From: Naegleria gruberi
Taxonomy: Eukaryota
DNA: 64,000 nt
Assembly: GCA_000004985.1 (NCBI GenBank)
Contig: GG738877.1
Strand: one strand, 5' to 3'
In this document: positions 3,889-4,350 of the stretch, piece by piece
Numbering within the stretch: the stretch's first letter is position 1
Layout: every line of letters starts with the position of its first letter
The notes under the pieces: model-generated
Databases searched by the model: none
What the model was told of the DNA's origin: nothing
Seen by the model: the letters and a program-made list of their open reading frames with translations, nothing else
Translations under genes and position numbers: made by a program

Positions 3889-4350
3889 ATGATGCAAATT
3901 TTTATTAAAACTCTCACAGGCAAGACAATTACTTTGCAAGTAGAGTCAATCAACCAAACAATAGAAAATATCAAATCCAAAGTTCAAGACAAGGAAGGAA
4001 TTTTAACAGATTACAAACTCTTCTTTGCAGGTCAACCAGTACATGATGGAATGCTAACAGATTACAATATTCAGAATGATTCAACTCTGCATTTAGTGTC
4101 AGGATTGAGAGGTGGTGTTCAAATACTTGTCAAGACATTGACTGGTAAAATTCTCACTTTGGAGGTTGAATCGAATGACACTATTGGAAATGTTAAATTA
4201 AAGATTCAAGATAAGGAAAATATTCCACCAGATCAACAACGAATTATATTTGCTGGTAAGGAATTGCAGGATGGAATCACCTTGTTGGATTCTAATGTTA
4301 TTCAAAAAGATTCCAATCTTCATTTGATTGTTAAGGCTAAAGGTGGCTAA
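3889..4350 (+). CDS. Di-ubiquitin-like protein: two divergent ubiquitin folds, each ending in Gly-Gly
   Basis: The start is ATG at 3889. Domain 1 is [19 protein letters not shown]...[35 protein letters not shown]. Domain 2 is [19 protein letters not shown]...[36 protein letters not shown] followed directly by the stop. Both are clearly ubiquitin-like (the MQIFVKTLTGK and LIFAGKQLEDG motifs) but diverged. Confidence 0.8.

Follow-up and report, generated by a model that had tools for sequence, protein, structure and literature searches.

A lineage-restricted ubiquitin-variant gene of polyubiquitin origin in Naegleria gruberi

Polyubiquitin genes (the UBB, UBC, and UBI4 type, and the Naegleria fowleri polyubiquitin of PDB entry 5vix) encode ubiquitin repeats that are joined head-to-tail with no spacer and with LRGG at the junction, and the canonical repeats are essentially invariant ubiquitin, freed as monomers when deubiquitinases cut at each RGG. 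Eukaryotes commonly carry diverged polyubiquitin-like genes, and their genomes hold many lineage-specific ubiquitin-like genes. The polyubiquitin-like genes of Arabidopsis are a case similar to that of human UBBP4. UBBP4 is a duplicated polyubiquitin gene with substituted repeats, and it gives rise to UbKEKS, a conjugated polyubiquitin-derived variant with targets distinct from those of ubiquitin (PMC7066184). ISG15 and FAT10 have two beta-grasp domains per chain and a conjugation-type GG end; FAT10 is made with its GG already free, so that no processing is needed, and both proteins are described in a review as absent from protozoa (PMC7600729). ISG15 is conjugated inducibly by enzymes of its own (the E1 UBA7, the E2 UBE2L6, and the E3 HERC5), and FAT10 is activated by UBA6. 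Tandem ubiquitin-like (UBL) modifiers, termed "ISG15-like," are now described in bacterial defense systems as well, so di-UBLs are not purely vertebrate. NEDD8 (RUB1) is a ubiquitin-derived modifier, about 58% identical to ubiquitin, that is told from it chiefly by tail residue 72 (Ala or another uncharged residue), and in plants RUB1 is made as the downstream unit of a ubiquitin-RUB1 fusion, from which it is released at RGG by cleavage.

Here we describe a gene that encodes two diverged ubiquitin repeats and lies in the window, by which we mean the whole 64,000-nucleotide stretch of DNA that was analyzed. The gene is genuine and intact, is restricted to one lineage, derives from polyubiquitin, and is of a fairly ordinary kind; its product may be a private ubiquitin variant.

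Structure and genomic setting of the gene

The gene is an uninterrupted, intron-less open reading frame (ORF) of 153 codons that runs from ATG to TAA on the + strand (positions 3889 to 4350; Table 1). Its product is a 100% match to XP_002675499.1 (EFC42755.1, NAEGRDRAFT_60736, UniProt D2VJV4), for which the sole annotation is "predicted protein." Pfam PF00240 (ubiquitin) matches the product twice, with a whole-protein E value of 1.4e-34 and a score of 118 bits (cutoff, 25.4), and the boundaries of the two units, D1 and D2, were placed by tblastn with ubiquitin. The units are arranged head-to-tail without a spacer, and the junction between them reads ...LRGG/VQIL... (amino acids 73 to 80). D1 terminates in LVSGLRGG and D2 in LIVKAKGG (nucleotides 4327 to 4347), exactly as quoted in the original prediction. 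The last codons, GGT GGC TAA at 4342 to 4350 (stop at 4348 to 4350), leave a free diglycine that requires no processing, a property that the Naegleria protein shares with FAT10. Identity to ubiquitin is 51/76 residues for D1 and 54/76 residues for D2, with indels in both. Between D1 and D2, 42 residues are identical (55%) and synonymous sites are saturated (pS 0.81), so that this comparison gives no age estimate for the gene.

Table 1. Coordinates of the two-repeat gene, its parts, and other features of the window
Feature	Position	Strand	Basis or remark
Complete di-ubiquitin-like CDS, 153 aa plus TAA	3889..4350	+	Pfam PF00240 x2, database identity
D1, aa 2-76, beta-grasp	3892..4116	+	67% identity to ubiquitin
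LRGG at D1 end (aa 73-76), then Val77 of D2	4105..4116	+	Sequence; same in L001
D2, aa 77-153, beta-grasp	4117..4347	+	71% identity to ubiquitin
C-terminal KAKGG (aa 149-153) plus immediate TAA stop	4333..4350	+	Sequence; same in L001
5S rRNA gene	4466..4584	+	Rfam RF00001, 106.5 bits
5S rRNA gene, dispersed	6696-6814	+	
5S rRNA gene, dispersed	38416-38533	-	
5S rRNA gene, dispersed	50277-50395	-	
U2 snRNA gene	6964-7154	+	
Upstream neighbor, 299-aa ORF	2361-3260	+	
Ubiquitin-like part of upstream neighbor	~3135-3251	+	PF00240, 27.8 bits; 62% identity to ubiquitin residues 42-70
F-box or F-box/LRR protein gene	721-1758	-	
F-box or F-box/LRR protein gene	48227-50239	+	
F-box or F-box/LRR protein gene	60443-62623	-	
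DUF4116-repeat protein gene	29680-31452	+	Pfam E, 1e-34 to 2e-65 for the three genes
DUF4116-repeat protein gene	45814-48123	+	
DUF4116-repeat protein gene	50570-51991	+	
Aldehyde dehydrogenase, first ORF	11979-12953	+	Profile positions 9-245
Aldehyde dehydrogenase, second ORF	13015-13617	+	Profile positions 270-461

AlphaFold2, run with a 30-sequence alignment, predicts two beta-grasp units (mean pLDDT, 80.7; pTM, 0.49; D1 pLDDT, 74 to 89). The predicted elements are E2-8, E13-18, H25-36, E42-46, E49-51, and E66-71 in D1 and E77-83, E88-93, H99-110, E117-121, E124-126, and E143-148 in D2. The two diverged ubiquitin folds that had been proposed from the sequence are thus recovered both by Pfam and by the structure prediction. 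Linker residues 73 to 75 have pLDDT values below 50, the final three residues have a mean pLDDT of 43, and no secondary structure follows E143-148. In this model, both GG tails are free, flexible, and unburied, like two beads on a flexible string. A buried C terminus, which had been named beforehand as an observation that would speak against a modifier, is not what is predicted.

The DNA that carries the gene is nuclear DNA of N. gruberi, an amoeboflagellate. The GC content of the window is 31 to 39%; its four 5S rRNA genes, its U2 snRNA gene, and three tRNAs are interspersed with protein-coding genes; and the remaining genes are of ordinary eukaryotic types (aldehyde dehydrogenase, TFIIB, DnaJ, RRM, ankyrin, F-box/LRR, and DUF4116), all of which fits a nuclear chromosome. 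A viral origin of the gene was considered and rejected in view of this normal host context (5S, U2, and tRNA genes). The first 5S rRNA gene begins 115 nucleotides downstream of the stop codon and is not part of the protein's function. Among all window ORFs of at least 180 amino acids, no E1, E2, or deubiquitinase gene was found; these ORFs instead encode F-box/LRR, DUF4116, and housekeeping proteins. Clustering of eukaryotic pathway genes, such as an E1, E2, or deubiquitinase gene beside that of a modifier, is not expected.

Several other features of the window were recorded. The upstream neighbor of the gene carries a truncated ubiquitin-like segment at its end (...IKLIFAGKALENERYLVDYSITKGTTLHYVKP), and this segment has no GG. 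The two ubiquitin-derived sequences are less than 630 bp apart, and there is no additional ubiquitin relic between them. The three DUF4116-repeat genes represent a locally expanded family to which no function has been assigned. The aldehyde dehydrogenase spans two adjacent ORFs, and a short intron of ~60 nucleotides is the probable cause of the split.

Relatives and polyubiquitin origin

A plain homology search with the protein was dominated by polyubiquitin, and the query itself appeared only at rank 46. We also searched with ubiquitin-identical residues replaced by X, which leaves only lineage-specific 5-mers to seed. With strong masking, there were two matches among 5.8 billion proteins: the query and a protein designated P0121. 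A two-sequence profile with minimal masking matched 39 proteins, P0121 included. Eleven other profile matches that were inspected comprise polyubiquitin variants close to the canonical form, diverged ubiquitin-like proteins of other kinds, and bacterial secreted ubiquitin-like proteins, and the remaining matches are weaker (36 to 55% identity, mostly over half of the query). Neither the masked nor the profile searches detected an orthologue from other Naegleria species among annotated proteins. The exact N. gruberi protein sequence has no match, and hence no transcript-type contig, in the contig index, and literature searches for the gene and protein identifiers and for the ENA project found no mention of the gene. 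A degenerate DNA pattern for HLIVKAKGG had no match in viral contigs and one match in JGI metagenomes (contig L002, positions 8244 to 8269); the latter was rejected as a relative, because it is a chance HLIVKAKGG within an unrelated, bacterial-looking repeat protein that is not a UBL.

Three of the profile matches, metagenome and Logan proteins (P0129, P0130, and P0144), have a signal peptide-like N terminus followed by near-canonical ubiquitin that ends in ...LRLRG or ...LRLRP, without GG. One of them has a precomputed match to Pfam PF00404 (dockerin). To judge from their sequences, these three proteins look like bacterial secreted ubiquitin mimics.

P0121 is encoded on a 644-bp ENA metagenome contig (L001), which matches the window in start context, two-domain layout, and GGT GGC TAA end and likewise continues into the 5S rRNA gene, 115 to 116 nucleotides downstream of the stop codon. 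Based on the shared layout, the shared GG-stop, and the 5S rRNA gene as a conserved neighbor, which anchors the orthology, we conclude that P0121 is the orthologue from a closely related Naegleria strain. A C-terminal extension after GG in a related organism would have counted against a modifier ready for use; the sole relative found also ends in GG followed by the stop, with no extension. Within the annotated proteins and contigs searched, matches to the gene come from N. gruberi and this one close relative alone. Since no orthologue was detected among annotated proteins of other Naegleria species, the gene appears to be young, and its long-term retention is unproven.

We have little doubt that the gene is of polyubiquitin origin and arose by divergence of a polyubiquitin gene copy. 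Each domain is 67 to 72% identical to ubiquitin, versus 39 to 43% for NEDD8; the best PDB matches, by sequence and by fold, are linear di- and polyubiquitin, including 5vix; and the repeats stand head-to-tail without a spacer and with LRGG at their junction. In a Foldseek search against the PDB, linear di-, tri-, and tetra-ubiquitin, the N. fowleri protein among them, come first with E values of ~1e-20 and 63 to 69% identity, whereas the tandem UBLs of ISG15, FAT10, and OASL trail at ~1e-10 and 20 to 23% identity (for FAT10 chain 7pyv_C, 22% identity and an E value of 1.6e-10). The replacement of Met by Val at the internal junction (GG-V) is also seen in other polyubiquitin-like proteins. The original prediction had held the sequence to be too diverged for a polyubiquitin gene. 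This is correct in that neither repeat is canonical ubiquitin (67% and 71% identity), but the gene nevertheless derives from one. Identification of either domain as NEDD8 was rejected, since identity to NEDD8 (43% for D1 and 39% for D2) is below identity to ubiquitin and residue 72 is wrong (D1 has Gly and D2 has Lys, versus Ala in NEDD8).

The same prediction had taken the exact GG end as a sign of a candidate two-domain modifier in the style of ISG15 or FAT10. However, among 156 proteins retrieved, 5 canonical polyubiquitins (P0044, P0059, P0087, P0090, and P0109) end in the same way. A GG-stop is therefore a minority feature of ordinary polyubiquitin genes as well and is not diagnostic. What survives of the comparison is the two-UBL architecture with a free GG; kinship with ISG15 or FAT10 was rejected on the Foldseek identities and E values given above, and the protein retains an internal LRGG. 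Any likeness is one of architecture only, reached convergently from a polyubiquitin gene. It is still conceivable, though unlikely, that the 153-amino-acid protein works uncut as a true di-UBL, activated at the D2 diglycine, with D1 as a rapidly evolving second domain that, for example, contacts E3s or targets or is engaged in an arms race against ubiquitin-hijacking pathogens. Two UBLs per chain and a GG that is free without processing are what such a modifier would have. Against this stand the low identity to ISG15 and FAT10, the low pTM and disordered linker, which give no sign of a fixed two-domain unit, and the presence of LRGG exactly at the junction in both strains; we know of no LRGG motif between the domains of ISG15 or FAT10.

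Divergence of the two repeats between strains

Selection was assessed on one close pair, the window and the single metagenome contig L001, with a silent divergence of 5 to 9%. The noncoding flanks, which serve as the baseline, differ at 14 of 153 positions (9.2%). D1 differs at 14 of 228 nucleotides, of which 11 are nonsynonymous and 3 synonymous, and has in addition one whole-codon indel; this is a dN/dS of about 1.0 and does not depart from the flanks (P = 0.32). In D2, only 2 of 231 nucleotides differ, both of them synonymous (P = 9e-5 versus the flanks). The split of nonsynonymous changes between D1 and D2, 11 versus 0, is significant (P = 5e-4), and the absence of such changes from D2 compares with a neutral expectation of about 9 to 14 (the probability of observing none is ~1e-6 at an expectation of 13.6). 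D2 is thus 10-fold less diverged than the DNA on its two sides, and since diverged sequence lies on both of these sides, a chimeric assembly is unlikely to be the cause.

Based on this comparison, D2 is very probably under strong purifying selection. In contrast, D1 is at most weakly constrained and evolves at an approximately neutral rate, yet it is folded and in frame. The two domains are therefore not equivalent, D2 being frozen between the strains compared and D1 changing at the rate of the flanks, and this asymmetry is clear and somewhat unexpected. On the lineage of the window, D1 has undergone at least 5 replacements and the indel in the direction away from ubiquitin, and its identity to ubiquitin is 67 to 68% in the window, versus 71 to 72% in the relative. 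Of the 11 replacements in D1, we count 7 as conservative (I/V, V/L, D/E, D/N, Q/E, and H/Q). These conservative replacements, together with the good predicted folding of D1, are points in favor of an uncut di-UBL, as is the fact that in ISG15, too, the N-terminal domain is the faster-evolving half; a D1 rate that is indistinguishable from neutral speaks against it.

D2 would be the part that functions. Because its first residue is Val77 and it lacks an initiator Met, it can be translated only through D1. This need for read-through would by itself explain why D1 has remained open and in frame, with an indel of a whole codon, despite the drift of its sequence.

These data also bear on the possibility that the gene is a functionless, decaying polyubiquitin duplicate, i.e., a young unitary pseudogene that is still open by chance. 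Restriction to N. gruberi and one close strain would fit such a relic, as would the neutral rate and the indel in D1, and expression evidence was found neither in the literature nor in the contig-index lookup. However, a relic would not be expected to carry a segment with no nonsynonymous change where about 9 to 14 are expected and with 10-fold less divergence than the adjacent DNA, nor an intact 153-codon frame in both strains with a whole codon as its sole indel. The conservation of D2 makes a functionless relic very unlikely.

Tail residues, possible conjugation, and comparison with known modifiers

D2 retains all seven ubiquitin lysines (K6, K11, K27, K29, K33, K48, and K63) as well as L8, R42, I44, H68, and G75-G76. 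It differs from ubiquitin at 22 positions and by one insertion; the changes include F4L, T12I, R54I, S57L, and Y59S and a Val inserted after N60, and positions 70 to 74 are all altered, from VLRLR to IVKAK. D1 carries R42K, I44F, K48Q, K63N, L71S, and R72G, with one residue inserted and two deleted, and retains L73-R74-G75-G76 at the junction in both strains. This LRGG is a potential deubiquitinase cleavage site, and because it has been kept, the protein may as well be cut into monomers as act as an ISG15-style unit. R72 and I44 are residues that are read by many ubiquitin-specific proteases. Since D1 has lost both, the junction may resist cleavage, which is a further point for an uncut di-UBL. 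We regard the putative cleavage between D1 and D2 as evenly balanced.

Position 72, occupied by Gly in D1 and by Lys in D2, also bears on activation. In a phage display study with a randomized tail, all clones selected with UBA1 had retained Arg72, the NEDD8 E1 (NAE) excluded Arg, Lys, and His at this position, and both enzymes were permissive at positions 71, 73, and 74 (PMC3731359). Given these preferences, neither standard E1 is obviously fitted to D2 or D1, no known E1 is an evident partner for the D2 tail, and activation is not assured. This leaves room for a second alternative, in which D2, alone or as part of a linear di-ubiquitin look-alike, acts noncovalently and its GG is merely inherited. 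Such a protein could occupy ubiquitin-binding domains, proteasome receptors, or deubiquitinases as a decoy or regulator. A tail with K72, A73, and K74, which fits the gate of neither UBA1 nor NAE, is consistent with this alternative, as are the retention of the I44 patch and all lysines, as a binding mimic would require, and the fact that the top structural matches are linear di-ubiquitin in complex with readers. On the other hand, a conjugated modifier needs just such an exposed, flexible, and conserved GG, followed at once by the stop (although, with D2 invariant throughout, the GG gives no separate signal), and seven retained lysines are more easily explained by chain building. We consider a nonconjugated mimic improbable.

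The best explanation as a whole, to which we assign a probability of about 0.5, is a lineage-restricted ubiquitin-variant gene of the N. gruberi clade that consists of two adjacent polyubiquitin repeats, ~30% diverged from ubiquitin, with D2 as the working part, attached to proteins through its GG. D2 would keep the ubiquitin tool kit (seven lysines, the L8/I44/H68 patch, and an exposed Gly-Gly), while the part of the tail that is read by E1s and deubiquitinases has been rewritten to IVKAKGG. It would then be a ubiquitin variant with altered enzyme specificity: UBA1 would use it less well, the NEDD8 E1 would reject it, and it would probably withstand many deubiquitinases. It would act after release from D1 by cleavage at LRGG/V, as in a polyubiquitin precursor, for which the plant ubiquitin-RUB1 precursor provides a further parallel. 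Alternatively, D2 may act together with D1 as an attached, variable N-terminal domain. Covalent conjugation of D2, as one part of this explanation, is putative, and we hold it only tentatively.

Conjugation of D2 would have a practical consequence. Trypsin leaves the same GG stub from D2 (...KAK/GG) and from ubiquitin (...LRLR/GG), so that GG-remnant proteomics with trypsin cannot separate the two, and K-GG data from Naegleria may mix ubiquitin with the D2 variant. A digest with Lys-C only does separate them, because D2 has K74 and leaves GG, whereas ubiquitin, in which the last lysine is K63, leaves a 13-residue stub (ESTLHLVLRLRGG).

Polyubiquitin-like divergence is common in eukaryotes and the conjugation of D2 is only putative, which makes the interest of the gene modest. 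Should D2 not be conjugated, the gene only adds to the many lineage-specific ubiquitin-like genes of eukaryotes. If it is conjugated, D2 would represent a ubiquitin-like modifier of very recent origin that is still separating from ubiquitin; the first residues to change would be those of the 70-74 tail and the 54-60 loop, and a polyubiquitin repeat would be convertible to a new modifier while the repeat upstream of it degenerates to a mere leader. Interest would rise if D2 were a private modifier with its own enzymes. The gene would then be an early stage in the birth of a convergent protist counterpart of ISG15 and FAT10, with a KAKGG tail served by a dedicated or retuned set of E1 and deubiquitinases, and D1 would be diversifying fast, with ubiquitin-hijacking bacteria and the giant viruses of amoebae as a possible source of pressure. 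We think this quite unlikely.

Compared with the described systems, the Naegleria gene shares its layout with polyubiquitin, but its repeats are 29 to 33% off ubiquitin and 45% off each other, with indels; D1 is without K48, K63, I44, and R72, and the 70-74 tail of D2 is wholly different. ISG15 ends in LRLRGG and FAT10 in CYCIGG, whereas D2 ends in VKAKGG. UbKEKS, which likewise comes from a duplicated polyubiquitin gene, is only 4 positions off ubiquitin and has kept the LRLRGG tail, whereas the 22 changes and one insertion of D2 include the whole tail. NEDD8 is set apart from ubiquitin by Ala72, whereas D2 has Lys72, a residue that is selected against by NAE (PMC3731359).
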